51,656 bases of DNA, taken from positions 1-51,656 of the IMG/VR virus record IMGVR_UViG_3300048893_000093; one strand, given 5' to 3'. The position numbers and the translations under genes are program-made. Position 1 is the first letter of the stretch. Every line of letters starts with the position of its first letter. The notes beneath the pieces were generated by a model. It searched no databases and had not been told where the DNA came from. It saw nothing but the letters and a program-made list of their open reading frames with translations. This document shows, one piece after another, positions 2,519 to 51,656 of this stretch. The DNA is from a virus (taxonomy: Duplodnaviria > Caudoviricetes).

Positions 2519-2536
2519 ATGGCAAAAATTATTGCC

Positions 2537-3376
2537 ATGAAAAAACAACCCACAACAATCTGCTCACTTGTATTCTTGCTTTCGTGCTTATGCACATTCC
2601 TACATGCTCAAATCATTCCAGTAACAATTATCGAAACGCGACCCGAAGCGTTGTGTACTGGTGATACTATTGAAGTTAGATTTGTTGTATTAGCTCAATT
2701 ACAACCGAACCAAATTTTTAAAGTCGGTGTAAGGTTAGATCGAAATAATACAACATTGATCGACACACTTTTCACTGGCACGCTTTCGCAATTAACGGTA
2801 GTCGATACTATTAGTATCGGCTTGGTTTACGGCGAGAAATTGAAAATACCGAATCAGTGCCCGGTAGGTACTTGGTCAGTTAGTGGTAATATATTGTCTC
2901 CGAACCAAGTAACACTTGGTATTATTGCCTGTAATCCAATCCCACAAATAATAAGTTTTTCACCTGATACGCTTTGTCCGGGAGATACGATTTGTATTAA
3001 ACTTTACAATCCATTAAAGGATTCTTTCAATTTCAATTGGATGACTACACAAGGTGAATCTGTTATAGTGTGGACGCAGATATTAACAAGTGGTAATGAA
3101 ACAGATACGATGAACTATTGTTTCAGGACACCTGATTTTTTATATCTGTCGTGTGGCCCCGCTTTTATTGGAATTGATCTTATTAACCAGTGGCCGATAT
3201 ATATTAAATGTGGTTGTATAATAAATTGGCTTGGAATAAAACAGAACGATCCGAATAAATTAAAACCAATTTATTACGACATTATGGGTAACCGCGTAGA
3301 ACCTCAGCAAGGAATGTTTTTGATTGAGCAGAAGGGACGGGAAAAACCGCATCCAGTTATTATAACCGAACCGTAA
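2537..3376 (+). CDS. Secreted Ig/IPT-like repeat protein with T9SS-CTD-like tail (moron)
   Basis: Signal peptide MKKQ...FLHA/Q; repeats PEALCTGDTIEV and PDTLCPGDTICI; C-terminal IYYDIMGNRV...GMFLI motif. Confidence 0.6.
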   Translation: MKKQPTTICSLVFLLSCLCTFLHAQIIPVTIIETRPEALCTGDTIEVRFVVLAQLQPNQIFKVGVRLDRNNTTLIDTLFTGTLSQLTVVDTISIGLVYGEKLKIPNQCPVGTWSVSGNILSPNQVTLGIIACNPIPQIISFSPDTLCPGDTICIKLYNPLKDSFNFNWMTTQGESVIVWTQILTSGNETDTMNYCFRTPDFLYLSCGPAFIGIDLINQWPIYIKCGCIINWLGIKQNDPNKLKPIYYDIMGNRVEPQQGMFLIEQKGREKPHPVIITEP

Positions 3377-3431
3377 ACCTCAGCGAAAAAATAAATTTGG
3401 AGTTTGGTTTTATTTGTATTAATTTAGCCCT

Positions 3432-3617
3432 CGCACTCAAAGCATACATTAACATGAATCAAAATTATATCCTTCGTTCGCAGTCGCTAACCGCTCCGCT
3501 CTGTGGAACACTCGGATATAATGTGATTATGTTAAGTAGCCGCACAGAATAACGTGGCCTAAAAAGGCCCGTTTATTCTTTTTCGATACTCGCTAACGCG
3601 ACCTGTGTGTATGTTAA
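3432..3617 (+). repeat. Structured repeat A1 (bulged long hairpin with XerD-like arm plus a second hairpin)
   Basis: 3442-3472 pairs with 3514-3540; GAATAACG-TGGCCT-AAAA-AGGCC-CGTTTATTC stem; homologous to 39562-39750. Confidence 0.8.
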
Positions 3618-4230: not shown

Positions 4231-4300
4231 CCCGCTAAAATAGCAATTCTCTTTTTAATCAGCCATTCCGCACATACCACCTGCCCTGCCCACAACCGAA

Positions 4301-4371
4301 GCTACTGTAACATAATGCACCATTATAATCCCGTGAAAAACGTTATCATAATTCGCATTATATTAAATAGC
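4301..4371 (+). repeat. Hairpin B1 with XerD-like arm TTATATTAAAT
   Basis: GCTACTGTAACATAATGC...GCATTATATTAAATAGC imperfect inverted repeat; homologous to 40267-40349. Confidence 0.7.
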
Positions 4372-4422
4372 CGCTATGGAATTTTTTTATGTCGATTTGG
4401 GTATTTTTTATTAATTTTATAT

Positions 4423-10654: not shown

Positions 10655-11583
10655 ACCATGAACGGCTATTTACACATAATACAAATTATATTATTTCAGA
10701 TATAATGTTTTTCGTTGATTTTAAAGTAAACTCATTTGCACGGTATCATACTGGGTAATTTGATTCGACCAGATAGCTTCCGTAGTCCTGAATTTTATTC
10801 CCTGCATCTCAACCATTGATTTAAACGGCATCCAATTAGCGTTAGTGTTTTCGCAAACAATAGTCTGCCCCAACCTTTCCTTGCACCAAGCCGTTAAATG
10901 GCTGTAATCAATGTTCTTATTGCTTTGGTTGTATTTGTGTCCTCCATGTTGATATGGCGGGTCAACAAACCATGTTGCCAACTCATTTGCCAAATCCTTG
11001 TAGCAACCGTGCTGAATAACCCAATGCCTTATTTTAAAGAGATTAGAGGCTATTAGTTTCAAGTTTTGTTTGTATGACTTAACACCCCACTCATAGGCTT
11101 TATTCCCGCCAACCGTCCCCTGTTGCAGCAAAAACCTTAGTAATTCGTATTGCTCAACACAATCCAAATCCTCCTTTATAATCCTATCGCCGGCTTTGTA
11201 ATTTGGAAATGATAACACATCTTTTTCGCTGCACTTTTGCAGGTACTTCCAAATATTAACAATGACCTCGTATTTATCAACCAACAAAATATCTCTGTCA
11301 AAATACTTCAAAGCATATCGGGCACTCCCCGCAAACGGCTCTATTATTTTCCCGTGCATAGGAGCAGGGTAATAATCAATAATCTTTGACTTGCTGCCGT
11401 AGTAACTAAACATTCTTTTTTACAATTTTCTTTAGAGCATCATTAAAGCTGATTCCCGCCACTTCCTGAATATCGGCAGCCATATCCATCAAAACGGATT
11501 TTAGCTGCTCTGTTTCTGCCTCTGTGAAGCTATACGCTATCTGTGTATCGCTTATTCCATAATCGCTGAGGTCGCTGAGGTCT
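10655..11583 (-). mobile_element. Accessory module 3 (inverted): GACCTCAGCGACCTCAGCGA - gene remnant - MTase - dif-like arm
   Basis: 11562-11583 reverse complement = AGACCTCAGCGACCTCAGCGAT; 10663-10691 reverse complement = ATATAATTTGTATTATGTGTAAATAGCCG. Confidence 0.5.
10721..11413 (-). CDS. DNA N6-adenine methyltransferase (Dam/D12-like)
   Basis: FSYYGSK, EPFAGSA (motif I) and FVDPPY (motif IV). Confidence 0.85.
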   Translation of the reverse strand: MFSYYGSKSKIIDYYPAPMHGKIIEPFAGSARYALKYFDRDILLVDKYEVIVNIWKYLQKCSEKDVLSFPNYKAGDRIIKEDLDCVEQYELLRFLLQQGTVGGNKAYEWGVKSYKQNLKLIASNLFKIRHWVIQHGCYKDLANELATWFVDPPYQHGGHKYNQSNKNIDYSHLTAWCKERLGQTIVCENTNANWMPFKSMVEMQGIKFRTTEAIWSNQITQYDTVQMSLL

Positions 11584-11794: not shown

Positions 11795-11865
11795 CACAAA
11801 TATAAAAAAAGTTAGTATAATATGCTAACTTATAAAAAATACTTTTTAACTGTGGGTATTTTTAC
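11795..11865. promoter_or_regulatory. Divergent late promoter module with palindromic operator AAGTTAGTATAATATGCTAACTT (11809-11831)
   Basis: Near copy at 46250-46320; leftward TATATTTG box. Confidence 0.7.
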
Positions 11866-11870
11866 TCCCA

Positions 11871-12890
11871 ATGGCAAAGGACATATTAATGTACGGTATA
11901 ATAGATAGTTGGTCAGTAGGCCAATTTATCAACGACATTGATGAGGTTCTTGAAGAAAATGAAAGCGCACCTATAACAGTTCGCGTTAATTCCCCTGGTG
12001 GCGACCCTGATTATGGATTCGGTGCCGTTGCAAAATTCGCTGAAATAAAAAACGAAAAGATTGTTCGCGTTGACGGTAAGGCTTATTCGACAGCTTTATA
12101 TTATTGTTGTTACACGGATAATGTCGTTGCGTTGGATGTTTCTGAATTCCTTTTGCACCGGGCCGCTTATGATGAATGGGTGGAATCGAATCCCGCTTAT
12201 TTCACGGATGCCAGAAAAGCCGGACTGGAAAATGCCAATAAAAAATTACGCGCTGCGTTTGAAGCAAAAGTAAACGTTCCATTATTTGAACAACTTTGCA
12301 AATGCACATTGGATGAGGTCTTTTCAATGGAAGGTCGTAAAGACGTATCGTTTAACGCTAAAATCGCAAAACGCATAGGTCTTATAAAAGAAATTATCCA
12401 AATCACGCCAACTAAAAAAGCCGAAATTGAAACATTGATGTTGAATGTTTCGGCCCTTCATAATGGATTCAAAATTGCGGCAAAAGCCGAAACAGAAGAT
12501 AAACCAAAAACCATGACAAAAGCAGAATTACAACTTAATCACGCGGCTGTTTACGCTGAAATATTTGAAGCAGGAAAAACTGCCGGTATAACTGAAATGA
12601 AGCAAATCGCTGAGGTATGGGCACATTACGCGCCTATTGATGCAAAGGCTTGTCAGGATGGAATTAAATCCGGCGTTATGCCGTCTCCTGTTCAGGTCAT
12701 TGAACTTGGCGAAAAGAAATTCAGTAAAAAATCGTTGAAAGAAATTGAGCATGGAAACGCTCCCGATACGCCAACACAGGAAGACAAAAATCTTTCAGCA
12801 AAAGAAAAAGAATTACAGGATTTCGTTTTGGGCGTTACCAAAAATTCAACTTTTTTGAGTGAAGCCGCTAAAAAACAACCTGTTAAATAA
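11871..12890 (+). CDS. ClpP-like head maturation protease with C-terminal scaffold
   Basis: VNSPGGD, DGKAYS and LLHRA motifs. Confidence 0.9.
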   Translation: MAKDILMYGIIDSWSVGQFINDIDEVLEENESAPITVRVNSPGGDPDYGFGAVAKFAEIKNEKIVRVDGKAYSTALYYCCYTDNVVALDVSEFLLHRAAYDEWVESNPAYFTDARKAGLENANKKLRAAFEAKVNVPLFEQLCKCTLDEVFSMEGRKDVSFNAKIAKRIGLIKEIIQITPTKKAEIETLMLNVSALHNGFKIAAKAETEDKPKTMTKAELQLNHAAVYAEIFEAGKTAGITEMKQIAEVWAHYAPIDAKACQDGIKSGVMPSPVQVIELGEKKFSKKSLKEIEHGNAPDTPTQEDKNLSAKEKELQDFVLGVTKNSTFLSEAAKKQPVK

Positions 12891-27419: not shown

Positions 27420-27830
27420 ATGGATCATCGTATCGGAATTATGAAAACAATCCAAGATATAAACAACGAAATTGCATCAATCCAAAACGGCATTGAGCAA
27501 TTGAATGATGCTGCGCCAAACGAGATGCTTCTGTTTTCTGAGATGAAACAAAAATCCATTACAACACGAAATAAAAATAAAATCGCTGATCGAATAGAAT
27601 TTCTTTTGGCAGTTCGGCAAATATTGGAGATCAAACCATCAGAAGACTATTTGAAAGGCGAAATTTCACGGCTCAAAACACTCATTGCAAACTTATCGCA
27701 AATAACCGTTCCGCGCGATTTTTATCCAAAAGATTTTTCTGGAAACGCTATATTTTATTTTAATAAAAAAATGGGTATAACTGAAATGCGACAACAAATA
27801 AGAAATATTGAATTTATACTTGGGATATGA
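27420..27830 (+). CDS. Hypothetical protein
   Basis: 136-aa helical ORF (start may be 27441). Confidence 0.55.
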   Translation: MDHRIGIMKTIQDINNEIASIQNGIEQLNDAAPNEMLLFSEMKQKSITTRNKNKIADRIEFLLAVRQILEIKPSEDYLKGEISRLKTLIANLSQITVPRDFYPKDFSGNAIFYFNKKMGITEMRQQIRNIEFILGI

Positions 27831-28975
27831 CCGACACACAACGAAACATTTGGCTTCTACGAATACAGGATTTTGCAAACATCCTTTTGGATTTGCCGTT
27901 AGATGAAAGAATAGAAATGCTCAACGAGGCGAGGTTAATTTTACATTCAACTTCGCCTTTTAAAGCAGAGCCGGTGGATTATGTGAAGTGGGTATTAGCA
28001 GAAACTGTAACGGCAAATGATTATAATCCTAACAAGGTCGCCCCTCCTGAAATGGAATTATTGGAAATTTCTATTATGAATGATGGCTTTACACAACCAG
28101 TAGTGACATTTCCTAATAATGGGAAAATTGAAGTGGTAGATGGCTTTCATAGAACGCGTGTATGTAAAGAATCTAAAATAGTTAAACAGCGCGTTATCGG
28201 TTATACGCCAACCGTTATAATTCGTAAAGAACAAAGTGATAAGAATGATCGCATCGCTTCAACCATCCGTCACAATCGTGCCCGTGGCAAACATCAAATT
28301 GACGCAATGAGTGAAATTGTTTTGGAATTGAAAAACCGTAATTGGAAAAATGAAAGAATTGCCCGTGAACTTGGAATGGATGAGGAAGAAATATTACGGT
28401 TATGCCAAATAACAGGTTTAGCAGAAATATTCAAAGATGATGACTTTTCAAAATCATGGGAAGCCTCAGATTCGATTGCAAATTACGAGCCATTAACAGA
28501 TGAATTAAACCAGGATGAGGTTGAACATTATCGAACAAGCAATACAAATGATCCTGACCGAATATTCCACACATTTGATAAATGGGAATGTCATAAAGCG
28601 GGATTCTACGCTAGTTCAAGATCAGGATTAACAGCAGATCAATGCGAGAAAATGTATGCTTCATTCCTGGGTGATAATAACCAATTCAGGGAGGGTTTGG
28701 AAGGTGTTCTCCGATCATGGCCCAACTCATGCGAACATTATCTGACTAATAAGGCTATGAACCGAATTGCTTGGTTAGGTCAAGCTGCTGTATGTTATAG
28801 CACTGGAATACCAAGTAAATTTTGTTCTGCTTGGACACTCTTAACAGAGCAACAACAAAACAATGCAAATGAATTGGCGCTAATTTATTTAAACAAATGG
28901 ATGGTATCGCATAACCGCGAACCAATCAGTATGGAAGATGCTTTATCAATTGGAAGACAAGTAAATATTTATTGA
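27827..28975 (+). CDS. ibrB: IbrB-like ParB/Srx-domain protein with extra C-terminal domain
   Basis: ANDYNPN.VAPPEM.LL..SI..DGFTQP, VDGFHR, ASTIRHNRARGKH. Confidence 0.8.
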   Translation: MTDTQRNIWLLRIQDFANILLDLPLDERIEMLNEARLILHSTSPFKAEPVDYVKWVLAETVTANDYNPNKVAPPEMELLEISIMNDGFTQPVVTFPNNGKIEVVDGFHRTRVCKESKIVKQRVIGYTPTVIIRKEQSDKNDRIASTIRHNRARGKHQIDAMSEIVLELKNRNWKNERIARELGMDEEEILRLCQITGLAEIFKDDDFSKSWEASDSIANYEPLTDELNQDEVEHYRTSNTNDPDRIFHTFDKWECHKAGFYASSRSGLTADQCEKMYASFLGDNNQFREGLEGVLRSWPNSCEHYLTNKAMNRIAWLGQAAVCYSTGIPSKFCSAWTLLTEQQQNNANELALIYLNKWMVSHNREPISMEDALSIGRQVNIY

Positions 28976-28976: not shown

Positions 28977-29675
28977 ATGGCAACTAAACTCTATCATACA
29001 ACAAAATCCGTTCTTACCGCTTCAAAAGAGCGCATATCAGCCACTTTCGATAATTTCCAACGAATTTATATTTCTTTCAGTGGCGGCAAAGATAGTTCCG
29101 TTATGACACATTTAATATTGCAGGAAGCGCGTAAAAGAGGTAGGCAAGTTGGGTTATTGATTATTGATCTTGAGGCGCAATATAATGATACAATCACACA
29201 TATAGAACAAATGGTCGCCATGTACCAGGATATTATCGAATTACATTGGGTGTGTGCCGAATTGTTATTACGAAATGCCGTATCAAATTATCAACCTCGC
29301 TGGATTTGTTGGGATAAAGAAAAACAAGATGTTTGGGTGCGACCAATGCCCTCTCGGTGCGCTGACCTAAACCAGTACGATTTTTACCAACCTAAAATGG
29401 AATTTGAAGAGTTTATGGTATTGTTTGGCGAATGGTATTCACGCGGAATAAATACCGTTGCGTTTATTGGCATACGCGCCGATGAATCACTGCATCGTTA
29501 CCGGGCAATCACTTCACGAAAAGATGGATTAATGTTTAATAATTGGAAATGGTCTACTAAAATAGCCGCGAAATTATTTAATATTTATCCGATTTACGAT
29601 TGGCGCACAGAAGATATTTGGGTGTTTCATGGTAAATTTCGTGAGCTGCCACATAATAAAATTTATGATAAATGA
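28977..29675 (+). CDS. ibrA: IbrA-like PAPS-reductase family protein, N-terminal part
   Basis: SFSGGKDS, GIRADES..R and YPIYDW motifs. Confidence 0.8.
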   Translation: MATKLYHTTKSVLTASKERISATFDNFQRIYISFSGGKDSSVMTHLILQEARKRGRQVGLLIIDLEAQYNDTITHIEQMVAMYQDIIELHWVCAELLLRNAVSNYQPRWICWDKEKQDVWVRPMPSRCADLNQYDFYQPKMEFEEFMVLFGEWYSRGINTVAFIGIRADESLHRYRAITSRKDGLMFNNWKWSTKIAAKLFNIYPIYDWRTEDIWVFHGKFRELPHNKIYDK

Positions 29676-30187
29676 TGATGGCAGGTGTAAAAATATCACA
29701 ACAGCGATTGTGTCAGCCATACGGAGATGACCAGCGCAGAGGATTATGGTTATATCATATATTGGAACCTGAAACATGGTATAAACTCGTATCGCGTGTT
29801 AATGGCGTAAATTCTGGTGCGCTCTATATTCAAGAAACAGGTAATATGACAGGGTATAATAAAATTACTAAACCTAACGGTCATACGTGGCAATCATTTT
29901 GCAATCTACTTTTATCAACAATGCCATGTCGCACCAGTTCGCATTATAAGGAACGGTTTAAAAAATTTATTAAAGGTTGGCAAGATAGGGGTTACCTCAA
30001 AATACCCGACGAAGCGCCGGAAGATTTAGAATCAAAATGTTGGGTACCATCATGGCGAAGATTATGCAAGGTGATTCTACGTAATGACTATTGGTGCAAA
30101 GGGCTTGGACAAGTTCAACCATTTTCAGAGGCTTACGGAAAATTTAAAGACATTAAAAAGAAACGTGAGATTGAAGCTAAATTATAA
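29672..30187 (+). CDS. IbrA-like protein, C-terminal part (DUF3440)
   Basis: QRLCQPYG, EPETW..L..RV.G.N.G and PSWRR.CK..L.NDYW. Confidence 0.75.
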   Translation: MMMAGVKISQQRLCQPYGDDQRRGLWLYHILEPETWYKLVSRVNGVNSGALYIQETGNMTGYNKITKPNGHTWQSFCNLLLSTMPCRTSSHYKERFKKFIKGWQDRGYLKIPDEAPEDLESKCWVPSWRRLCKVILRNDYWCKGLGQVQPFSEAYGKFKDIKKKREIEAKL

Positions 30188-30657
30188 TGACCGACTTCCA
30201 CTCCATAACCGAATCAGTCCGCGAATTTGAACAATCATTCACGCCCTCACAACCGCGAATATTGCGATTTTATAATCGTAAGCGGAAATGCGTTAAAACT
30301 ATAACATCGACTGATTACATCTATTGGTACAATAATCGACATGCATCCTGGCAAACTGAAAATGAATATATTATTGCGATTGAAAATGAATTGAGGCAAA
30401 ATGATGAGCAGAAGCGATATTCATTTATAGAAGTATTTTCGATGATCGGCGAATTTATCCGCCGCCATTATATACGCGGTAACCGATTGGCCCCGATTTC
30501 GTTTGAGGGGCAAATGCAGGATGATCCGTATTTATCGCAACGACTTATTGTCATTATACCGGTTTGCGATTGGCGAAAGGTGATGAGGTGGACGCGACAA
30601 AATCGGTATATTACAATAGAACAATTTATTAACCAATATAAAAACCAAACCTCATGA
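30187..30657 (+). CDS. Hypothetical protein
   Basis: 156-aa ORF coupled to both neighbours. Confidence 0.55.
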   Translation: MTDFHSITESVREFEQSFTPSQPRILRFYNRKRKCVKTITSTDYIYWYNNRHASWQTENEYIIAIENELRQNDEQKRYSFIEVFSMIGEFIRRHYIRGNRLAPISFEGQMQDDPYLSQRLIVIIPVCDWRKVMRWTRQNRYITIEQFINQYKNQTS

Positions 30658-31403
30658 CACAAATTTTCAAAGATTATCAAGAATTTTCTCAAAGAGAAGA
30701 TAAAACAGTTAACGGCGTTTCTCAAAATTTCGCTGATAATAACCCGGATTATAAAAATCAGTTTAATAATGAAGGCTGTTACAATTGCCATGATTGCAGC
30801 GGTTGCATCGGTTGCAGCGATTGCAGCGGTTGCAGCGGTTGCAGCGGTTGCAGCGATTGCATCGGTTGCAGCGGTTGCAGCGGTTGCCGCGGTTGCAGCG
30901 GTTGCAGCGGTTGCAGCGGTTGCAGCGGTTGCCGCGGTTGCAGCGATTGCAGCGGTTGCATCGGTTGCAGCGATTGCAGCGATTGCAGCGGTTGCGGCGG
31001 TTGCAGCGATTGCCGCGATTGCCGCGGTTGCCGCGGTTGCATAGGTTTGTATTATAAAAACGGTTATAATGAAATTAATAAATTAGAAATTCCCATTATC
31101 GAAAACATCCATCAAAAAATATTAGAAGCATGTAAACCTCCTTATGCTTTAAAAATGGATAAATGGCATACATGTGAAACAACTCATTGTCGTGCTGGTT
31201 GGGTAGAAATAATTGCTGGTGAGGCTGGCTCGAAACTCGCTGCGCAAACCTCAACCTTATTCGCCGCTATACAAATTTATAAAAAATCTTCGCCTAATAT
31301 TCGTGTTTTTCCACCGAGATTTTTTGAAAGCGATAAAATAGCAATGGAAGATATAAAGAGATGTGCGGAATTGGAGATTGAAGAAAATAGTAAAATCAAA
31401 TAA
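30654..31403 (+). CDS. Cys-rich (CXX)30 repeat protein with C-terminal [13 protein letters not shown] domain
   Basis: Only frame with unique flanking domains across the repeat. Confidence 0.75.
30777..31046. repeat. 9-bp coding tandem repeat x30 (consensus TGCAGCGGT)
   Basis: Counted directly. Confidence 0.95.
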
Positions 31404-31426: not shown

Positions 31427-32215
31427 ATGACCACACAACAATTAACACTCGACCAACTCGGTAACAGAACTACCATCCGCGATAATTCACAACGGGCAGA
31501 TGAAGTTATGCGTATTTCTCTCGACAAAATAGTTATCCGCGACGGCTTCAATGTCCGGCAGCATTACGGCGATATTAAGGGGTTGGCGCAATCCATTTTA
31601 GAAAACGGACAGACACTACCTGGCCGTGTTGATGTATTGGCTGATGGAACATTTGTACTGGCAGACGGGCACCGGCGATATGAGGCGTTAAAACTACTTG
31701 AAACGGAAGGCAATGATTGTTACTTCATGGCAATTGTAAACAAAACCAAAACTACAGAAGAACAACGCATCCTTCAAATGTTTACAACGCAAGACAATAA
31801 GCCGTTAGATGCAATTGAAGTTTGCGAACTGATACAACGCCTAGTTAATATCGGACACACCCCAAAAGCGATTGCCGATAAAATTGGAAAGAGCCGGTCT
31901 TATGTGGATCAAATGCTTTCACTCGCAACTGAATCTCCTCAGATAAAAGAGCATGTAAAAAACGGTACTATAAATGTTTCGACTGTTTTGAAAACAAAAC
32001 GAACAACGCCCAACGCAGAAGAACGCTCATCCCGTCTTGCCGATGCCATAAAAAACAGTAACGGTAAATCTTCTGGCGTTTCCAAAATTGTGCGGGTGGC
32101 GCAAAAAAACGAAGCCAAAACAAATCATGCCAATCGGATCGCAAAGGCCATTATAAAAGATGATAAAATGCAAACGCAGGAACGGCTGGTTGAGATTATA
32201 TTGGAGTTGTTATGA
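31427..32215 (+). CDS. ParB/RepB/Spo0J-family protein with HTH
   Basis: GFNVR, LA.SI..NG, DGHRR..A and IADKIGKSRSYV. Confidence 0.85.
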   Translation: MTTQQLTLDQLGNRTTIRDNSQRADEVMRISLDKIVIRDGFNVRQHYGDIKGLAQSILENGQTLPGRVDVLADGTFVLADGHRRYEALKLLETEGNDCYFMAIVNKTKTTEEQRILQMFTTQDNKPLDAIEVCELIQRLVNIGHTPKAIADKIGKSRSYVDQMLSLATESPQIKEHVKNGTINVSTVLKTKRTTPNAEERSSRLADAIKNSNGKSSGVSKIVRVAQKNEAKTNHANRIAKAIIKDDKMQTQERLVEIILELL

Positions 32216-37387: not shown

Positions 37388-39505
37388 ATGATCGACACGA
37401 TAATATTAGATGAATCAGAAATTTTAGTTAAACAACTAAAAAATATTGTTACTAAAAACATTCCGCAAATTTCCACCATCAAACCAAGCGATTGGGTTGA
37501 ACAAAATATAGTAATGGGTAAGCCTTTTCCTGGGCCGTTTCGATATAAGCGTACCCCTTATACCAGAGAAATTATAGATATACTTTCACCCGACAGTTCA
37601 TGCTGGGGATGTGCCGTGAAGAAAGGCGGCCAGATTGGTTTTTCGGCTGGCGTAATTTATCCCGGTATTTGTTGGATCATAAAAAATAATCCTGGTAATA
37701 CATCACTAAGTGTTGGCGCACCGGAACTAATAAAGAAAGCCACTGATAAATTAGATGCTTGTATAAATTCGGCTGGACTGAGGGATTACATTAAACCGTC
37801 ATCATTAAGGAAAAGAAATAATAAAACAGGCGATACTAATACGCAAAAGGATTTTACCGGCGGTTTCGCAATGATATGGAGTGCAAATAATCATAAAAAT
37901 ATCCGTCAGGTGGATTTGCAAAACCAATTTAATGATGACTATGTTGCGATAAAAAAAGCATCAAAAGAATCTGGAAGTACTGATAAAAAATTAGACCAAC
38001 GGAGCGCAGCTTATAAAGATACTAAGAAGCGGATGGATATTTCAACGCCAGAATTAATTGGCAGTACTATTGATGAGGCATTTGACAAGGGAGATAAGCG
38101 CCGGTATTTAATCCCATGCCCTTGCTGTAATGATCTGATAACAATTGATTGGATCATGCCATCCGTTTGTAGACCTGGTAAAATGGCTGGTATAACATGG
38201 AAAATGAAAGAGGGTGACGGGGGATTAGATAAAGAAAGTGTGGGTTATGTGTGTCCGTTGTGTGATGGTTTTTTTACTGATAAAAATAAACAGGATTGGT
38301 TGAATAAGGGTGAATGGGTGGCATTTGATATTCAGAAAATTGAAGGGTATAGGAGTTATCATATCTCAGCATTATACGCGCCGATTGGAATGGACGGTTG
38401 GGATAAGTATGTGCAGGATTGGATTGATATTCACCCGAAAGGACAGCCGCGTAAAGAAGAGGAATACCAATGGTTTGTCAATGAAGTGTTAGGTGAAAGT
38501 TACGAACCAAAAACAACTGCAATCCAACCCCGCCAGCTTGAAAAAAACATTCAACCTTATGATATTGGTGTTGTGCCCGATGAACTGAGCGTGAAACATG
38601 GTAATGGTCATATCGTTTTAATCACCTGTGCATGTGATTTAGGGGGCCGGTATGTCGGGGATCAATTAAACAGCAAGGAAGATGATGCCCGGCTGGATTG
38701 GGAAATAGTGGCCCATGCAGAAAATGGCACTACATATAGCATTGACCACGGTAGTATCGGCACATTTACCAATGCATACTTGGGTAAAAAAGATGAGGGA
38801 CGTGAATTATGGTCTTATGATCCGAGTAAAACTAATAATGTTTGGAAGGAATTGGATTTAATTTTGGCGCGCACATACGTAGTTGGCAAACATGGCCGGG
38901 GCGCAAACGCCATTACCAATACGATGAAGATACAATTAACCGGTATAGATAGCGGGTTCGCTGATAAATTCGTGTGGAACTATATTGATAGTCGGAGCGG
39001 CAGGTTTAAAATCGTTGGGTTAAAGGGAAATAAAGAATCAACGCCGCGTATTCACGGCGCGAATCAGCGAAACTGGACGTTAGGTAAGAGCCGGGCCAAT
39101 CTGTATATGATCGAAGTGGGCCACCTGAAAGATATAATTGCAAGCCGAATTTCGCTCCGATGGGACGGTTCAAACGCGTCAAGTCAACCAGGCGGGTATA
39201 TGAATTTTCCGCGCCGGGCCGATGGAAAATACGAAAATGAAAATTATTTTGAGCATTTTGAGGCCGAACACCGGGTTATTGATGAGAAAAAAGGAACGTT
39301 CATTTGGAAAAAGAAAAGTCCGAATGTGCAAAATCACGTTTTCGATTTGAACGTTTACAATATGGCCCTGACAGAAATTTTAATGCACCATGTGTTTAAA
39401 GAAATTGGCGTGGTTGAAAAAGATGAACAAACCTGGTGGCGCTTTTCTGAATGGTTGATTAAACAGTGGGGATTGACCTCAGCTTTAAATAGACCTCAGC
39501 GATAA
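37388..39505 (+). CDS. terL: Terminase large subunit, lambda gpA family
   Basis: RTPY.REI, K..QIG.S, ISTP, CPCC...CP.C, IDSG and NH.FD motifs. Confidence 0.92.
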   Translation: MIDTIILDESEILVKQLKNIVTKNIPQISTIKPSDWVEQNIVMGKPFPGPFRYKRTPYTREIIDILSPDSSCWGCAVKKGGQIGFSAGVIYPGICWIIKNNPGNTSLSVGAPELIKKATDKLDACINSAGLRDYIKPSSLRKRNNKTGDTNTQKDFTGGFAMIWSANNHKNIRQVDLQNQFNDDYVAIKKASKESGSTDKKLDQRSAAYKDTKKRMDISTPELIGSTIDEAFDKGDKRRYLIPCPCCNDLITIDWIMPSVCRPGKMAGITWKMKEGDGGLDKESVGYVCPLCDGFFTDKNKQDWLNKGEWVAFDIQKIEGYRSYHISALYAPIGMDGWDKYVQDWIDIHPKGQPRKEEEYQWFVNEVLGESYEPKTTAIQPRQLEKNIQPYDIGVVPDELSVKHGNGHIVLITCACDLGGRYVGDQLNSKEDDARLDWEIVAHAENGTTYSIDHGSIGTFTNAYLGKKDEGRELWSYDPSKTNNVWKELDLILARTYVVGKHGRGANAITNTMKIQLTGIDSGFADKFVWNYIDSRSGRFKIVGLKGNKESTPRIHGANQRNWTLGKSRANLYMIEVGHLKDIIASRISLRWDGSNASSQPGGYMNFPRRADGKYENENYFEHFEAEHRVIDEKKGTFIWKKKSPNVQNHVFDLNVYNMALTEILMHHVFKEIGVVEKDEQTWWRFSEWLIKQWGLTSALNRPQR

Positions 39506-39561
39506 AAATAAATTTGCAAATCCCGTTTTGTTGCCGTATATTTGTTTCGCTTAAAAAGCCC

Positions 39562-39750
39562 CGCACACCAAAGCTAAATTTAACATGAACGCTCCATTAT
39601 ATCTTTCGTCGCCTTCGCTAATCGCTCGGCTTATAGAGGCACTCAGATATAATGGCGTTATGTGTAAATAGCCGCCCCGAATAGCGTAAACGAAAACGTT
39701 TCGCTTATTCTCTGGCCTGATCTCGCTAACGCTCCTGTGTGTAAGGTTAA
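39562..39750 (+). repeat. Structured repeat A2
   Basis: 39573-39604 pairs with 39645-39672; second stem GAATAGCG-TAAACG-AAAA-CGTTT-CGCTTATTC; preceded by TATATTTG at 39537. Confidence 0.8.
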
Positions 39751-39762
39751 CCGTTAGGCTCA

Positions 39763-39963
39763 GTGCGAATGTTTATTTTCAATTCAGATTTTGAATCAGA
39801 CAAAAATTTTCACAAAGAAATTCGTGACAGATCAATTATTTATGATCCGACTACAAATGAAAATTTTGATAAAATAGACGCTGAAATATCTAAATTAAAA
39901 AAAATAGGTATTGAAATAAAATACTCAGCTAAGTTCGATTCCGTTGTCCTTGAGAAACAGTAA
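39763..39963 (+). CDS. Small hypothetical protein (module cargo)
   Basis: 66-aa AT-rich ORF; ATG at 39769 possible. Confidence 0.45.
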   Translation: MRMFIFNSDFESDKNFHKEIRDRSIIYDPTTNENFDKIDAEISKLKKIGIEIKYSAKFDSVVLEKQ

Positions 39964-40116
39964 ATATTCATTTACTGCATTTGGATTACCGGCAGTAGGT
40001 TGTAATTTAAGTGAATACCCTCCATTAACCGTGTTAATTTGGCCCATGACTTTAGTATCATTTTTTAATTTGTTGATAATGTCTAATTGTTCTTGAGTGA
40101 TGAAATAAGTTTTCAT
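39925..40116 (-). CDS. Small hypothetical protein (module cargo)
   Basis: 63-aa ORF with A-rich leader; convergent overlap with previous ORF. Confidence 0.5.
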   Translation of the reverse strand: MKTYFITQEQLDIINKLKNDTKVMGQINTVNGGYSLKLQPTAGNPNAVNEYLLFLKDNGIELS

Positions 40117-40147
40117 TGTTTAAGTTGTTTTTAAATGATGAATTAAT

Positions 40148-40182
40148 GAGGCTCGACATTCTAAGTGTCGGGCTTCTCTTTT
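40148..40182 (+). terminator. Terminator-like hairpin
   Basis: GAGGCTCGACA-loop-TGTCGGGCTTC followed by TCTTTT. Confidence 0.55.
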
Positions 40183-40266
40183 ATAAAGGTATCTAAAATT
40201 TGAACTAACATTAACATCAACTTATTAGTATCGCGCAAACCCAACCCTACGCCACCCACCTCCCAA

Positions 40267-40349
40267 GCTATTTATACATAACGCTCCATTATAATGCGTC
40301 ACTAACAAAACCGTTAGTTTGTATTATAATCGACGTTATATTAAATAGC
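40267..40349 (+). repeat. Hairpin B2 with XerD-like arm
   Basis: GCTATTTATACATAACG...CGTTATATTAAATAGC. Confidence 0.75.
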
Positions 40350-40387
40350 CGCGCGTGGAATTTTTAATTGTGGTAAAATGGAAATGA

Positions 40388-41077
40388 TTAGAGGGCCACC
40401 GGCTTGTTGAAATAATTAACATAAAACTCAAAACTTTCAGGATCGCATATCCGGCGCAGCAATTGCAAGTCTTTATCTGGCCCACCGTGAATATCGTATC
40501 TTTCAAGCCTGGAAGTATGCATATCGCCACCGGTTAACCCTATTCCATGCTTAATACCTAGGCAAATATGCTGTTTTGGGGCAAAATTGACCAATTTTAG
40601 GCGCTTTCCATCAGCATGTTTTGCTATGTCAGATAGGTGTGTATCCAAATATGGCTCGTGATCCGGCGGCCAATTGAAGCTCATATCGGGCCGAATCAAT
40701 GTTGACATGGCGCAAGTTCGGCGCGGATGACCCATTTCAAAGTAAGAAAAGATACGAATATTATAATAAATTGTGTAAGAAGTGGAGAAAAGTTCGGGTT
40801 TTCCAGCATTTTCCCAGGATTTTATCATTGTTTCTAGGTAATTTGGAGCATACCAGTCATCATCCTCCCAGAAAGCAATAACATCTAATCCACGACCGCG
40901 CAAATATTCATAACCGCGCCGGTAACGCTGCGTTATATCTTTGTTGGTGGATTCCGGTGGGTAATCCATGAAAAGAATAATGTCCGGCTGAATTGTTTGC
41001 AATTTTATCAGCCGTTCACATTGTTTTCGGAATAACGGACGGTCGCCGCGTGTTGGGATTAGGATAGCGAGTTTCAA
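40388..41077 (-). CDS. Glycosyltransferase, GT-A / GT2-like
   Basis: ILIPTRGDRP, WEDDDWY; paralogue of 45052-45891. Confidence 0.8.
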   Translation of the reverse strand: MKLAILIPTRGDRPLFRKQCERLIKLQTIQPDIILFMDYPPESTNKDITQRYRRGYEYLRGRGLDVIAFWEDDDWYAPNYLETMIKSWENAGKPELFSTSYTIYYNIRIFSYFEMGHPRRTCAMSTLIRPDMSFNWPPDHEPYLDTHLSDIAKHADGKRLKLVNFAPKQHICLGIKHGIGLTGGDMHTSRLERYDIHGGPDKDLQLLRRICDPESFEFYVNYFNKPVAL

Positions 41078-41162
41078 TTCATTCCAATTTTAAAAACAAA
41101 AACAATATCAATTCCGCGATGAGCGAAAACAAAAGAAGGGTATATGACGGGAATGAAATACA

Positions 41163-41813
41163 TCACTGCTTCGCGGGCACATCCCATTTATCAGGTGAAA
41201 ATTCAGGTGGATTTAATATGCGGGTTCCTCTCCCAGGATGAAAAATAAAATCTGAGAAAGGAACGTTGATGCAAAAAAATCGGTGCGGACTGGTTTCAAG
41301 TTGCGTCATCGTATTAATACATGGCGCGCCGTGATTTATAAAAGCTGGCAATAAAATGTATTTCATTTTATCTATCAGCGCAAAATGTGGATGCAAATAA
41401 CGAATACCGTCTTTGTCAACGTTACCGCCATCATTATTTACCATCACAACTCTGCCAACTCCAAAACATTTATCCCGGTTACCATCCATCAGGATAGCCA
41501 TGTATTCTATTATGCCGTGACGGCGTATAATTACATCGGAATCAATTAAAAGGAAGTAGCGCGTCTTACAAAATCCAATTCCTAAATTCATTCCTGGCCC
41601 ATGCCCGATATTTTGACGATAATTTTTAACGAGCGTGATGTCATCGCGTAAGGTTTGCGTATAAGTAAAACAGTCGTTGGTTTCATCACTACCATCAATG
41701 ATAATTATTTTCAACTTAGGATACTCAAGTCGGATAGATTCAACGCAAGAACGAAGTATATCTGCGGTGTTGTAAGAAACAATTATAGCGGTTATGTTGT
41801 CGGTCATCTCCAA
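41163..41813 (-). CDS. Glycosyltransferase family 2
   Basis: IIVSYN, IIDGS, NIGHG.G.N and LIDSD. Confidence 0.85.
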   Translation of the reverse strand: MEMTDNITAIIVSYNTADILRSCVESIRLEYPKLKIIIIDGSDETNDCFTYTQTLRDDITLVKNYRQNIGHGPGMNLGIGFCKTRYFLLIDSDVIIRRHGIIEYMAILMDGNRDKCFGVGRVVMVNNDGGNVDKDGIRYLHPHFALIDKMKYILLPAFINHGAPCINTMTQLETSPHRFFCINVPFSDFIFHPGRGTRILNPPEFSPDKWDVPAKQ

Positions 41814-42772
41814 TACCTCCCAAAAATACTCAATAAATATTTACCTGTCGCCTCAAAACTGTGCTTTTCTGTTACCCAATTATAAGTATCGGTTTGATGC
41901 CGTGAAATTTCAGCCGGGGATAATTCCAATAGATGCGAAACGTTATCAATGAATCTTTGTTCGGTATTACAAACGAAAAACGGGCAAATTCTTTCAGTCG
42001 GATGCGTTCCTTTGCGCGGCGATCCGTATGCCGATTCGTAAACATCCAAATTTATATTTTGCGTAACCACAATTTTACCAGCCGCCGCCGCTTCAAAAGC
42101 AGTAACACCCCAGCAACCGTATGGTTTACCGTTTAATTCCGGTTTAAATAACTCAATATAAATATCATAATTATTCATCCTGGTAAGTTGTTCTGTGTGA
42201 GAAACACGATCATTTGAGTGCATAAGCGTGAATGGCTGTTTTACCTTTCCCAACATTTCCAGTATTTTTTCAGTTCCTTTCACTTCCGGGTTACTTGGAA
42301 AATGACCAATCGCATAAGGAGCATGAATTTCGTGCCCGAATTTTGGCGTACCGTTCATTTCAAATGGAGCAGCAAAATAATGAATATTTTTTGCGCCAAG
42401 TTGCATAAATTCACACTCATCAGTAAGAGTGAATTTGACGCGCGGATTAAAAACGGCGTTATGTGCTTCCGGTGCGCGCCTGTATGCTGATCCGGTATAT
42501 CCTACGCAAATCGTGCGGTTACCTATCACACTTTCCAATTCATTCAATAGCCAAATTTCACCGTGAGTTAAAATAATGAGTGAATCTGTTGGCGAAGACG
42601 AAATGACGCGGCGCAATCCATCTATTGTAGTGTGTGTACTGGTTTCTGCATACCCAAATGGGTGCGGTGTAATATAATATGATGAAGCATCGGCACCGGC
42701 AGCGCGGAGGGATTTACAAATGTTGAATTCCAAATTGGCCCAATCCGATATGCAGCATAGGATTATTTTCAT
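41804..42772 (-). CDS. Glycosyltransferase, GT-B (GT4-like)
   Basis: H.PSNP..KGT, DIYIE and G...FEAAAAGK.VV. Confidence 0.75.
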   Translation of the reverse strand: MKIILCCISDWANLEFNICKSLRAAGADASSYYITPHPFGYAETSTHTTIDGLRRVISSSPTDSLIILTHGEIWLLNELESVIGNRTICVGYTGSAYRRAPEAHNAVFNPRVKFTLTDECEFMQLGAKNIHYFAAPFEMNGTPKFGHEIHAPYAIGHFPSNPEVKGTEKILEMLGKVKQPFTLMHSNDRVSHTEQLTRMNNYDIYIELFKPELNGKPYGCWGVTAFEAAAAGKIVVTQNINLDVYESAYGSPRKGTHPTERICPFFVCNTEQRFIDNVSHLLELSPAEISRHQTDTYNWVTEKHSFEATGKYLLSIFGRYWR

Positions 42773-43542
42773 AATTCAGTAATTAACGGTTTCGATTTTC
42801 GCTTCGTGATCTCCCCCAGAACCTTATTTTTATATTCCTGCCCCAACCTTCGTTGCGTTCCATTCGGTAAATTTTGATTGTACAAATATATGGGTTCCCG
42901 GATTATTCCAATGCGTTTTTTACCACACATTTCTAAACATGAAAACATAACCTCGCTTTCCGTGGTCGTATCTATCCAATTGCCGTTAATTAAAAAATCA
43001 CAGATTGGTATTTGTCTAAATAATTCTATCCTGAATGTATTTGGTGCGGTGGAACGGTATGGTACGGTGCGATACGCGCGCGTCTCATGTATCTCGTCCG
43101 GGAAATCCAATTCAAAATCCACCGGCAACATTTTACCGTATTGATTAATCCAATTACCATACGTCATCCATTTGCCATTTTGATATTCGCGGCAAATTCT
43201 ATTCAGTGCGCATGGTAAAAGTTCGTCATCCAATCCAACAAATATCACCACATCATTATCCTGACCATAAGTCGAAATAGCAGCATGGCGACAAAAAGCA
43301 GCCCCGTGATTTTGCTTATACGACATGGTTTGAAATAGATGTTTGAACCTTGGATTGTTGTGAATAAAAGTTTCGTAAAATTGATTTATTTCTGAAAGTG
43401 TATTATCGGTGCTGGCATCGTCGATGACAATAATTTTTATTTTACCGTTATCGTAATGCTGGTTTACGATGGATTTTAAGCACGGGAATACGTAGGGCGC
43501 ACAATTGTAGCCGCTCACCACAATTATAAAATTAATCTTCAT
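42769..43542 (-). CDS. Glycosyltransferase family 2
   Basis: GYN, IDDASTD, GLDD, WMTYG. Confidence 0.88.
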   Translation of the reverse strand: MKINFIIVVSGYNCAPYVFPCLKSIVNQHYDNGKIKIIVIDDASTDNTLSEINQFYETFIHNNPRFKHLFQTMSYKQNHGAAFCRHAAISTYGQDNDVVIFVGLDDELLPCALNRICREYQNGKWMTYGNWINQYGKMLPVDFELDFPDEIHETRAYRTVPYRSTAPNTFRIELFRQIPICDFLINGNWIDTTTESEVMFSCLEMCGKKRIGIIREPIYLYNQNLPNGTQRRLGQEYKNKVLGEITKRKSKPLITEL

Positions 43543-43581
43543 ACGGCTTATATGTCATTAAAATTAATATTATGATGAAAA

Positions 43582-44325
43582 TTACAAGCATTCCAACGGT
43601 TTTTTCGGTTCTAATCCCTTCACAAATGCCAACTCCGAATCCCTCTGTTCCTGCGTGAACCTGCGCGTTATTGCTAACGGATTCATATTATTGTATTCGT
43701 AAATAACATCCAGTATCGGCACTATGTGATCTTTTCCAGCCAATTCCATTAAGCAATAAAGCATATTAATGTCGGGATAAATTGTTTTTTGCTTAGGAAA
43801 TAAATCAGCATCGGTTAAGTGATAATATAATTCTTTTCTGAATGATCGCAAATGAATAAATTTCCAATCCTGGTGCCGGGCCGGTTTATCTTCGTATTTA
43901 ATTGTATTCTCATCAAAACAAACCTGGCCCGTATCTTTAATAATGTAATTGCCGTATGTTAGCCAGCAATCGGAGGATTGATAAGCGAGATTAAGTGTTT
44001 CAAGCGCGTTTGGCAATAAGCGGTCGTCGAGGTCGAGCCATACGATAACGTCGAAATTAATAGTGTGATTTATTCTTTTTAGCGCATCGTGTCTGCATTT
44101 CACAATACCTTTATTTCTGAATTCGTATTCGGCACACCATTTTAAATCTTTTGTAGCTCTCAAATATTTTTGAATAACATCCCTGCTATTATCAGAACTT
44201 GCATCATCTATAACGATTAACTCAAAATTCCTATAAGTTTGCGCCTCAATCGAAGTTAAACAATCTTCAACGTATTTTTCGACGTTGTAACCGCTTGCCA
44301 AAATAAGAAATTTTACTTCCACCAT
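43582..44325 (-). CDS. Glycosyltransferase family 2
   Basis: Probable start 44325; GYN.EKY, IDDASSD, LDLDD, WLTYG; paralogue of 42769-43542. Confidence 0.88.
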   Translation of the reverse strand: MVEVKFLILASGYNVEKYVEDCLTSIEAQTYRNFELIVIDDASSDNSRDVIQKYLRATKDLKWCAEYEFRNKGIVKCRHDALKRINHTINFDVIVWLDLDDRLLPNALETLNLAYQSSDCWLTYGNYIIKDTGQVCFDENTIKYEDKPARHQDWKFIHLRSFRKELYYHLTDADLFPKQKTIYPDINMLYCLMELAGKDHIVPILDVIYEYNNMNPLAITRRFTQEQRDSELAFVKGLEPKKPLECL

Positions 44326-44439
44326 AATAAAACTACTATAACCGTTATCCAAAAAACTGCAATTACCGCGCCAATAAATAAGCACCCATTACGCGCGTCT
44401 TTATCCCATTTTATATTATGTTCGTCGAATGGCATTGTA

Positions 44440-45039
44440 CTATTCGGGTTTGCCGCGTGAAACCTTTCCGGTTTCACACATTATTACATCGTGCCAATAT
44501 ACACTTGCGCCACTTTCCCAAACCGCATCAATGAATGCGAAGTCACCGCATCTAGCAACTCCAAACTTATGAATAAATTTTTCATAAATTTCTCGCTTGA
44601 CAACAAAACAGCTACCTCCAATTCTTGCAATAATAGGCTTTTTACCCCAACATAATTCATCAGTAGGATATAAATTCCCTGGTATTTGATTTATTTTGAT
44701 AATCATTCTGAAAAAAATAACGTCTGGGTTATGCTGATCGGCAACCGCCTTTAATTCAGTTGTCATTTCAGGATTTATAATTTTATCATCGTCATCCAAA
44801 AGGAAAACATATTTACCTGTAACTAACGCGCGGGTTTCTTTATCCGAAAAAGATTGGTTCGCTCTGAGTAATCCAATCCCGATAGTATCAGTAATAAAAA
44901 TTTGCTCAATATCTTTATCTGTTAACGAATCAATGGAAAGTAAATTTTCAGCTAATCCCTGCGGGCGTTTATAAACCCTCGTAATTATTGATAGAAAAGG
45001 GTCGGATGAATATGATTTTTTGGTGTAGGTTAAATTCAT
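44440..45039 (-). CDS. Glycosyltransferase, GT-A / GT2-like
   Basis: LSIITR..KRP, GKYVFLLDDDD, GDF.FI. Confidence 0.75.
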   Translation of the reverse strand: MNLTYTKKSYSSDPFLSIITRVYKRPQGLAENLLSIDSLTDKDIEQIFITDTIGIGLLRANQSFSDKETRALVTGKYVFLLDDDDKIINPEMTTELKAVADQHNPDVIFFRMIIKINQIPGNLYPTDELCWGKKPIIARIGGSCFVVKREIYEKFIHKFGVARCGDFAFIDAVWESGASVYWHDVIMCETGKVSRGKPE

Positions 45040-46249: not shown

Positions 46250-46320
46250 AACAAATGTAAAAAAAGTTAGCATATTATACTAACTTATAAAAAATATATT
46301 TTCAACCCCCGTAGTTTTAC
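46250..46320. promoter_or_regulatory. Divergent late promoter module with operator AAGTTAGCATATTATACTAACTT (46264-46286)
   Basis: Near copy of 11795-11865. Confidence 0.7.
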
Positions 46321-51529: not shown

Positions 51530-51656
51530 CTAACGCTGCCAACACAAATACAATTATACAATGGGATTCTTTCCAATTTGGAAAATGAATTCGGTGTGCC
51601 AATTAACGACCAAGGTAAAGCAGAGATGCGCGCACAGGCGGCAACGCAAGCCGCTA
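51530..51656. repeat. Terminal direct repeat, copy 2
   Basis: Identical to 1-127. Confidence 0.95.

Follow-up and report, generated by a model that had tools for sequence, protein, structure and literature searches.

The 51,656-nt stretch of DNA analysed here (IMG/VR virus record IMGVR_UViG_3300048893_000093; Duplodnaviria, Caudoviricetes), which as a whole is referred to as the window, is a circular phage genome that carries two copies of a structured sequence, element A, each followed downstream by a shorter element B. Our analysis suggests, with a probability that we put at about 0.58, that A and B are hairpin-shaped recombination sites of the Xer type at the borders of two mobile cassettes. 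What carries this reading is a fold preserved by covariation, membership of a hairpin family found mainly in Bacteroidota, a match of the hairpin arms to the dif site, the linkage of bacterial family members to tyrosine recombinases and tandem element arrays, and a single hairpin at the corresponding position behind the terminase gene of two distant relatives. Judged from sequence and genomic context, the hairpins may be counted among dif-type sites, and recombination at them, if it occurs, would be the route by which the phage cassettes arrived. The initial annotation had described A as a covarying element of about 190 nt present twice, and had offered two explanations: a non-coding RNA, or a single-strand origin or recombination signal of a circular single-stranded cassette intermediate.

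The two copies of element A (A1, about 3437-3611; A2, 39568-39743) share 79% mean column identity, and A1 is located by the exact 15-mer TGGCCTAAAAAGGCC, which has a single window copy at 3555-3569 (0 expected from 100 shuffles). RNAalifold on A1 and A2 predicted 48 pairs, seven of them changed on both sides and still paired, which confirms that the copies differ in sequence and keep their pairing. Compensatory changes include GGCC(T)/(A)GGCC versus AAACG/CGTTT and an A-T to G-C swap in GAATA(A/G)CG / CG(T/C)TTATTC; the second stems singled out earlier, TGGCCT-AAAA-AGGCC in A1 and TAAACG-AAAA-CGTTT in A2, were indeed seen within GAATA(A/G)CG...CG(T/C)TTATTC. Both folds exceed all of 200 shuffled sequences in stability (A2, -56.5 kcal/mol, z = -3.63; A1, -56.1 kcal/mol, z = -4.85). 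The motif TCGCTAA(N)CGC is present twice per copy, as described, with one occurrence in the hairpin 1 loop and the other in the 3' tail. A search of Rfam returned 0 matches at gathering score in the window, with chance-level matches at E up to 10 elsewhere in both loci.

Element A is composite, consisting of a Bacteroidota-type promoter-like box, a long imperfect hairpin of about 110 nt and a 3' extension specific to the phage lineage, and the hairpin is its functional core. Bacteroidota promoters have the consensus TTTG at -33 and TAnnTTTG at -7. On the plus strand a promoter-like pair of this kind precedes A1 (TTTG 3396-3399, 20 nt, TAATTTAG 3420-3427) as well as A2 (TTTG 39513-39516, 20 nt, TATATTTG 39537-39544, the latter being the box reported earlier). 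Upstream of these pairs, also on the plus strand, lies a ACCTCAGCGA box, at 3377-3386 directly behind the stop codon of the open reading frame (ORF) 2516-3376, and at 39493-39502 overlapping the stop codon of the gene for the large terminase subunit (TerL), where a second box, GACCTCAGC, is found at 39475-39483. Hairpin 1, the dif-like one, spans 3437-3546 (+) in A1, with the right arm ATATAA-TGTGA-TTATGTTAAGT and the loop GTCGCTAACCGCTCC, and 39568-39678 (+) in A2, with the right arm ATATAA-TGGCG-TTATGTGTAAAT, a 1-nt arm insertion by alignment to model R1 (trained on 94 sequences of the family) and the loop TTCGCTAATCGCTCGG. The 3' extension begins with hairpin 2 and its AAAA loop (3547-3578 (+) in A1, GAATAACG-TGGCCT-AAAA-AGGCC-CGTTTATTC; 39679-39710 (+) in A2, GAATAGCG-TAAACG-AAAA-CGTTT-CGCTTATTC) and ends in a tail of TCGCTAACGC followed by CCTGTGTGTA, at 3590-3599 and 3602-3611 in A1 (tail 3590-3611, +) and at 39723-39732 and 39734-39743 in A2 (tail 39723-39743, +).

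Parts of this architecture recur in other phage-derived copies. A promoter-like box lies 3-25 nt 5' of the hairpin in six of them (A1, A2, element 1 of phage record G003, L037, L091 and L134), and boxes related to ACCTCAGCGA precede the phage hairpins of L020, L037, L090, L091, L134, L419 and L427. Hairpin 2 covaries among A1, A2 and L134 (CAACT-AAAA-AGTTG in L134). The combination of an AAAA-looped hairpin 2, the TCGCTAACGC motif and the CCTGTGTGTA tail is common only to A and L134 and in part to G003; the 3' tail of A1 is partly common to L134 and G003 element 1. A pattern specific to the A tail gave 0 matches in viral contigs.

Some 650 bp past each A, its 5' hairpin is found again in the shorter element B (4296-4377 and 40262-40355), and therefore the window holds four hairpins, all on the plus strand, as two A-cassette-B units. 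Hence the statement that the element is present twice stands for full-length A and falls short for its hairpin. The sequence AACGCTCCATTATA occurs at 39588 in A2 and at 40280 in B2, and the direct-repeat families D7 and D8 join the two B elements. Unit ends are conserved (79% for the A pair, 77% for the B pair), and the cassette interiors are unrelated. Model R1 returned four sites in the window at E <= 6e-10, the next distinct site having E = 0.53; the individual scores, all of them obtained on training sequences, were 51.7 bits for A1 (E 6.1e-10), 56.8 bits for A2 (E 3.9e-11), 62.2 bits for B1 (E 1.9e-12) and 67.4 bits for B2 (E 1.2e-13).

The right arm of B1 reads TCATAA-TTCGCA-TTATATTAAAT and that of B2 TTATAA-TCGACG-TTATATTAAAT, with spacers of 6 nt, compared to 5 nt in A1 and A2. 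A C-rich leader, CCGCACATACCACCTGCCCTGCCCACAACC, precedes B1 at 4255-4295 (+) and is common to B2 and G003 element 3. At its 3' end B1 overlaps an in-frame ATG (4375) of a minor-tail gene, the phrog_4688 match of which comprises residues 42-274 of the ORF starting at 4315; B2 is followed by a minus-strand glycosyltransferase block. Cassette 1 holds a gene for a protein of 194 residues (P0001; 3646-4230, minus strand) that is convergent with A1. This protein has no family in Pfam, PHROGs or NCBIfam, and its sole PADLOC match is weak (Cas8a, 20.7 bits); an Rx4H motif of HEPN type, RNRMAH, was recognised in it by eye. Cassette 2 (39763-40116) contains two overlapping small ORFs as alternative candidates, 39763-39963 (+, 66 residues, GTG start) and 39925-40116 (-, 63 residues), and neither has a family in Pfam, PHROGs, NCBIfam or PADLOC. 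In the protein Atlas the cassette proteins fall only into unnamed clusters (bacterial ones for cassette 1), with MtlR as the nearest named cluster at a score of 0.85, a lead only.

According to the available text of PMC2731167, dif is built as 11 + 6 + 11 nt, and conservation is highest in the XerD site and in the inner portions of the two arms. The commonest right arm of the hairpin family, TTATGTTAAAT, is identical at 11/11 positions to the XerD arm printed there for dif of E. coli and for the dif sites of numerous further proteobacteria. The 171 right-arm instances, collected with a search pattern that admitted only four arm variants and spacers of 5-8 nt, divide into TTATGTTAAAT (88), TTATATTAAAT (49), TTATGTTAAGT (33) and TTATATTAAGT (1). 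The window arms match the XerD arm at 10/11 positions each in A1 (TTATGTTAAGT) and in B1 and B2 (TTATATTAAAT), and A2 has TTATGTGTAAAT with an insertion. In published text TTATGTTAAAT turned up in 54 papers, and the top matches listed were mainly on dif, pdif or Xer.

The left arm is an inverted copy of the right one, and the inner arms, which end in ATAA, lie 5-7 nt from the outer arms; folding therefore restores a single dif-like duplex, the centre of which is partly unpaired, and the plain duplex form presents two dif-like sites face to face. Right spacers of 5, 6 and 7 nt were counted in 76, 45 and 42 of the 171 instances, respectively; in dif/Xer sites the central region measures 6 bp, or 8 bp in those of plasmids. 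Compared to the right spacer, the left one is longer in 105 instances, of the same length in 41 and shorter in 25. In genome G007 the chromosomal site consists of a 28-bp dif-like unit repeated perfectly in inverted orientation, each half having a 6-bp centre. Over five genomes, a loose dif pattern matched less often than the reversed pattern used as control, and it was useful only for the variant hairpins of genome G008.

The hairpin belongs to a very large family. In viral contigs its right-arm 17-mer was found at 14 loci, at least seven of them with the whole hairpin, and a stricter two-arm pattern returned at least 122 loci in metagenome contigs, nearly all real by eye, and at least 124 in genome contigs. 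A loose two-gap pattern matched 91 stretches of viral contigs, mostly AT-rich chance matches, with about eight loci real by eye. The 80 genome records listed are all Bacteroidota by title except six (L244, L246, L288, L296, L302, L307), and the Bacteroidota orders among them are Bacteroidales, Cytophagales, Chitinophagales, Flavobacteriales and Sphingobacteriales. With A2, B2 and a canonical family member as queries, blastn had no match among GenBank phages or in PLSDB. The hairpin site and cassette system and the family 14-mers appear undescribed in the literature searched, which did not cover the supplement of PMC3025954, where predicted Bacteroidetes dif sequences may be listed.

The family consensus can be written as A-run ... 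CC.AAGCTA-nn-TAACATAA-N6-7-(A/C)TTATAG ... loop ... CTATAA-N5-7-TTATGTTAAATAGCCGC, with a loop that varies in length across the family. Upstream of the bacterial copies the consensus is an A-run and then CC.AAGCTA, without a promoter-like box. In 94 sequences, significant covariation among homologues was found, with a score of 0.229 versus 0.061 for shuffled alignments and at most 0.062 for slid controls: 93.2% of cells were paired versus 83.5% after shuffling (0 of 500 shuffles reached the observed value), and 213 cells were changed on both sides versus 66.5. There is a hint that the complement (bottom) strand is the one that folds. Whole-hairpin energy favours that strand in 74 of 100 cases, a bias that the C/A-rich top strand alone could cause, and at 91 independent sites the plus-strand mismatches comprise 71 A.C against 23 G.U, or 43 against 21 once the pair biased by the search pattern (28 of the 71) is left out.

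The genomic surroundings of the bacterial copies revealed a recurrent association with recombinases. Tyrosine recombinases (PF00589), often with a SAM_1 domain, account for 14 of 128 flanking ORFs in genome loci and for 9 of 52 in metagenome loci (8 above cut-off), and are the commonest recurring neighbour of bacterial hairpins. Nine neighbouring recombinases scored 42-117 bits on the NCBIfam XerC/XerD models, the cut-offs of which are about 330, and 28-37 bits or sub-threshold on the integron integrase model TIGR02249 (cut-off 265); they are therefore Xer-like, and neither bona fide XerC/XerD nor IntI. Other neighbours of the hairpins include ORF6N, YhcG/DUF1016 nucleases, RadC, DUF4391, reverse transcriptase, Sir2, HEPN, PIN and SocA proteins. 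A tetratricopeptide repeat (TPR) protein, mostly of about 380 residues, adjoins the hairpin in 10 loci. In four Pontibacter loci (L248, L279, L286, L298) the hairpin lies between a conserved TPR gene of about 380 codons and a holin-4-like gene; its orientation to these two genes differs between L248 and L286, both calls being of low-scoring AT-rich copies and maybe unreliable.

In four of the five genomes examined, the hairpins cluster at a single chromosomal locus. In genome G006, 6 same-strand copies fall within 53 kb; the strict pattern finds 2 copies in G008, where variants occur about every 8 kb; G010 contains 2 copies separated by 8 kb, and G007 a single one; in G009 the 2 copies lie on different contigs, and the number of loci can therefore not be judged from this fragmented assembly. 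The array units of G006, mostly about 7 kb long, each have two tyrosine recombinases in tandem just 5' of the hairpin, together with a helix-turn-helix gene and a large gene that is primase-like or unknown. Tandem arrays with a hairpin between the units, which are mostly 6.5-8 kb long, occupy 4083001-4143000 of contig C1 in G006 (L483-L485) and 5.067-5.108 Mb of contig C1 in G008, and represent small integrative elements of a family for which no description was found in the literature. Much shorter spacing also occurs: four hairpins stand 725-930 bp apart past gyrA and a TPR gene in L273-L275, and convergent hairpin pairs 230-1000 bp apart were seen in 9 of 100 genome loci.

As suggested by cumulative GC skew, sampled in 20-kb windows only, the chromosomal hairpin may mark the replication terminus, and two of four genomes are consistent with this suggestive placement. 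In G007 the skew peaks at about 3.565 Mb, no more than about 10 kb away from the site (3.554 Mb), and the G008 array lies opposite the origin-type skew switch. With GC at about 50% over roughly the first 2 Mb and at about 35% thereafter, the G007 record is probably a chimeric assembly.

Comparison with other phages revealed an arrangement similar to that behind the terminase gene of the window. Of 80 viral loci with relatives of TerL, two (L419 and L427) have a single hairpin 30-54 nt past the TerL stop codon by model R1, with ACCTCA-type boxes before it and a minus-strand gene block after it, and the gene behind the hairpin is homologous between the two. L419 and L427 show the layout of the window minus the cassette and one hairpin, as an unoccupied landing site would look. 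Searched as a single protein, TerL has no close viral relative; its profile found no match at E <= 1e-30 in 401 Bacteroidota genomes, and a related TerL occurs in none of five hairpin-bearing phage records, G003 included. Phage record G003 has three hairpins, 516 and 590 bp apart, in a unit that runs from a TATATTTG box through an A-type hairpin with a CACCTGTGTATG tail and a minus-strand ORF to B-type hairpins, one of them with a C-rich leader. G003 is unrelated by TerL and has the same unit ends; therefore the unit, or at least its ends, moves between unrelated phages.

According to the mechanism that we propose, the hairpins would serve as attachment or recombination sites of Xer-family tyrosine recombinases. 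A on the left and the shorter B on the right would be the junction sites of each cassette, one cassette lying behind TerL and the other in the tail-gene region, and the recombinases would act in trans, either as host XerC/D or as the Xer-like pairs of resident integrative elements.

Several observations weigh against this proposal. No integrase or recombinase was found among the 71 window ORFs scanned with Pfam. The R1 matches of the four window hairpins are partly so by construction, because all four are among the 94 training sequences of the model, and covariation cannot tell DNA from RNA as the folding molecule. The 5-nt right spacers of A1 and A2 and the arm insertion of A2 depart from the family norm, and therefore the A sites may be decayed. 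Four sites in direct orientation would, if all were active, expose 35 kb to deletion. The remaining TerL-relative loci (78 of the 80, searched by R1 with default filters) have no hairpin, and the gene behind the hairpin of L419 and L427 shows no homology to the one that follows B2, so that synteny is not kept. No A-B joint appeared in contig-only sequencing runs, although at depth 2-3 runs X3 (pieces inside cassette 2 only) and X4 (phage-gene pieces without 39452-41683) are too thin to serve as evidence. In the chromosomes, the site of G010 lies inside a positive-skew stretch, away from the switch, and the skew of G006 is too noisy. Finally, the promoter-like box and the conserved 3' extension that are specific to A are unaccounted for, and both point toward RNA. 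Three explanations may be given for these features, namely an RNA convergent with the cassette gene and possibly regulating it, accessory recombination sequences, or transcription through the hairpin.

The first of these explanations grows into the main alternative, one that we consider rather unlikely: A could be a structured small RNA or leader, about 140-190 nt long and driven by the promoter, that starts just past the TAnnTTTG box and acts on the cassette gene convergent with it, either in cis or as antisense; a toxin-like cargo, for instance, might have it as its RNA partner. The dif-like hairpin would then be a mere scaffold. TTTG-N20-TAnnTTTG stands ahead of both A copies, and TAnnTTTG is found at the distance given above ahead of the hairpin in G003 element 1, L037, L091 and L134; the promoter-bearing A-type copies in A1, G003 element 1 and L091 face a minus-strand ORF. 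The whole 190 nt are more stable than shuffles (z = -3.6 and -4.85), hairpin 2 covaries in three sequences with its AAAA loop kept, and a closing stem CGCAC/GUGUG is possible between the 5' and 3' ends. However, there is no conserved terminator, a T-run past hairpin 2 being present in A1 only, and the hairpin core is common to hundreds of bacterial copies that lack a promoter and adjoin recombinases. The arms are conserved as sequence, up to 11/11 positions of the dif XerD arm, which suits protein-DNA recognition better than RNA pairing, and the excess of A.C over G.U on the plus strand, indicating that the opposite strand folds, speaks mildly against a hairpin 1 fold in an RNA read from the promoter.

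Conserved ends round unrelated cargo, repeated in an unrelated phage, would also be left behind if A and B were repeated promoter, hairpin and insulator or terminator modules flanking 'moron' genes and spread by homologous recombination without a site-specific recombinase. For the promoter-stem-loop cassettes of T4-type phages, spread by homologous recombination between phages has been proposed. The units of the window do lie at operon boundaries: they follow either TerL or a gene of the tail region, and a tail gene or a convergent block comes next. Several viral loci have an ATG 15-25 nt past the end of the hairpin. Such modules would leave unexplained the identity of the arms to the dif XerD arm, the bacterial copies beside tyrosine recombinase pairs in tandem arrays at one locus, and the pairing kept by compensatory change, and we regard them as quite improbable. 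Least credible by far is an ssoA-type single-strand origin, or another priming signal of a single-stranded intermediate, as the initial annotation had proposed from TCGCTA, the complement of which (TAGCGA) resembles TAGCG(A/T), the CS-6 motif of ssoA origins. The element is a large hairpin, as such an origin would be. Of the CS-6 and RSB motifs that take set positions in ssoA hairpins, the complement of the hexamer alone is present. A match of six letters is of little weight, however. TCGCTAA is limited to A1, A2 and L134 and absent from the family consensus, the 71 window ORFs include no rolling-circle Rep-type family at or above curated Pfam cut-offs, and the genome is that of a 51.5-kb tailed phage. 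Of the earlier proposals, the single-strand origin is thus not supported, and the recombination signal gains from the match to the XerD arm, the Xer-like neighbours and the cassette-spaced arrays.

If A and B are Xer-type sites, a more far-reaching scheme can be outlined, which in its entirety remains somewhat doubtful: a cassette system common to Bacteroidota and their phages and based on hairpin-shaped, doubled dif sites. Here the chromosomal terminus site would be an inverted pair of dif units at which integrative elements with their own Xer-like recombinase pair might stack in tandem. Mini-cassettes of 0.5-0.9 kb without a recombinase could then hop via the folded site in an integron-like manner and could also enter the genomes of tailed phages, bringing accessory or conflict genes, and in the phages the A-type promoter and the RNA-forming extension may control the captured gene or the recombination. 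Chromosome dimer resolution in Bacteroidetes is said to be unstudied in the available part of PMC3091885, and the Xer-type reading, if right, would supply a candidate site for it, doubled and hairpin-forming. It would also add to integrons a second widespread folded-site cassette exchange, run by Xer-like recombinase pairs and carrying conflict-type cargo such as ORF6N, YhcG nucleases, HEPN, PIN, Sir2 and reverse transcriptase. Cassettes at fixed landing sites of tailed phages, e.g. behind the terminase gene, would open a route of gene flow between host islands and phages. Should the interpretation prove wrong, A would still be a covarying 190-nt element without an Rfam match and with its own promoter-like box.

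The remainder of the window is that of a tailed-phage genome of 51.5 kb, with bases 1-127 recurring at 51530-51656 (direct-repeat family D2) and with genes for terminase, portal, sheath, tape-measure and baseplate proteins (Pfam, PHROGs); ARAGORN found no tRNA or tmRNA in it. The gpA-type TerL (37388-39505) has 705 residues compared to 650-690 in most relatives, its frame running into the ACCTCAGCGA box, which supplies the stop codon. The terminase gene is parted from the portal gene (8919-10619) by about 21 kb, and between terminase and tail sheath genes lies an unusual cargo, the glycosyltransferase block (40388-45039, minus strand) of five family-2 ORFs, three above the Pfam cut-off and two weak. 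The 10-mer ACCTCAGCGA has four exact copies in the window, at 3377-3386 (+), 39493-39502 (+), within 11562-11581 (-) and at 12607-12616 (-). It often forms a tandem pair directly past a stop codon, and GACCTCAGCGACCTCAGCGA stands behind a minus-strand ORF of 65 residues with no hairpin nearby. In this it resembles a phage intergenic signal independent of the hairpin, perhaps an operator or processing site.

Two ParB-like genes are accompanied by a PAPS-reductase gene and then a DUF3440 gene (27827-28975, 31427-32215 and 28977-30187 for the set); together with the absence of an integrase, this set may indicate a plasmid-like prophage state or a DNA-modification module. ORF 30654-31403 contains about 27 or more head-to-tail copies of a 9-bp unit (30731-31090; direct-repeat family D1), and its protein therefore has a three-residue repeat. 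A 70-nt repeat with 80% identity between its copies (11796-11865 and 46251-46320) includes an inverted repeat of its own (AAAGTTAG..CTAACTT). One copy stands just ahead of the gene for the head protease (11871), the other just ahead of that for the sheath (46339). The repeat is probably a shared late promoter or operator.

Among known systems, the T4-type promoter-stem-loop cassettes resemble the phage units described here in that a repeated promoter and hairpin flank variable small phage genes. Those modules are not known to have recombinase-site features or a recombinase-linked bacterial counterpart.

The likeness to the attC sites of integrons is one of kind: the hairpin is likewise an imperfect palindrome with compensatory pairing, extrahelical bases and a variable top, its left arm is the longer one in 105 of 171 instances, one strand may be the folding one, and small cassettes stand in arrays. 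According to the available texts of PMC11641012 and PMC2117344, IntI recognises attC in its folded hairpin form, in which the bottom strand takes part. Unlike attC, the hairpins have arms that are strongly conserved across orders and show dif geometry instead of R/L boxes; unlike in integrons, the recombinase gene lies 5' of the hairpin in the same direction, cassette genes take either orientation and the neighbouring recombinases are not integron integrases. Integron membership was rejected on the failure of these recombinases against TIGR02249. In Acinetobacter, pdif modules are small sets of accessory genes bounded by XerC/XerD-type sites (PMC7399989 and PMC12907356, as far as their available text goes), and the small accessory-gene modules and the convergent hairpin pairs in 9 of 100 genome loci are reminiscent of them. 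The pdif sites are simple 28-bp plasmid sites in alternating orientation, whereas the sites described here are inverted-pair hairpins that are direct in orientation in the phage, and a module of the Acinetobacter type was rejected on these grounds.

The closest parallels are offered by dif itself, the attP(+) site of CTX phages and the integrative mobile elements exploiting Xer (IMEX), with which the hairpins have in common an 11-nt XerD-type arm and, it appears, an ATAA inner arm and a short spacer. CTX-like vibriophages carry two inverted dif-like sequences, a pair able to fold into one site, and dif-like sites also flank Bacteroidetes microvirus proviruses, as reported in the accessible part of PMC3091885. 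Like IMEX, the bacterial elements are integrated in tandem at one chromosomal locus, with a possible terminus-type position in two of four genomes. Differences from these systems are apparent as well. The host is a member of the Bacteroidota and the carrier a tailed double-stranded DNA phage, compared to the filamentous single-stranded DNA phages of the CTX type. The spacers of the hairpin family commonly measure 5-7 nt, in contrast to the fixed 6 nt of dif, and the family has conserved AAGCTA / TAGCCGC extensions that dif lacks. Whereas IMEX rely on host XerCD, many of the bacterial copies have their own Xer-like recombinase pair, and the units between sites are as short as 0.5-0.9 kb. By arm sequence and geometry, elements A and B appear most like dif/Xer sites with a folded attP.

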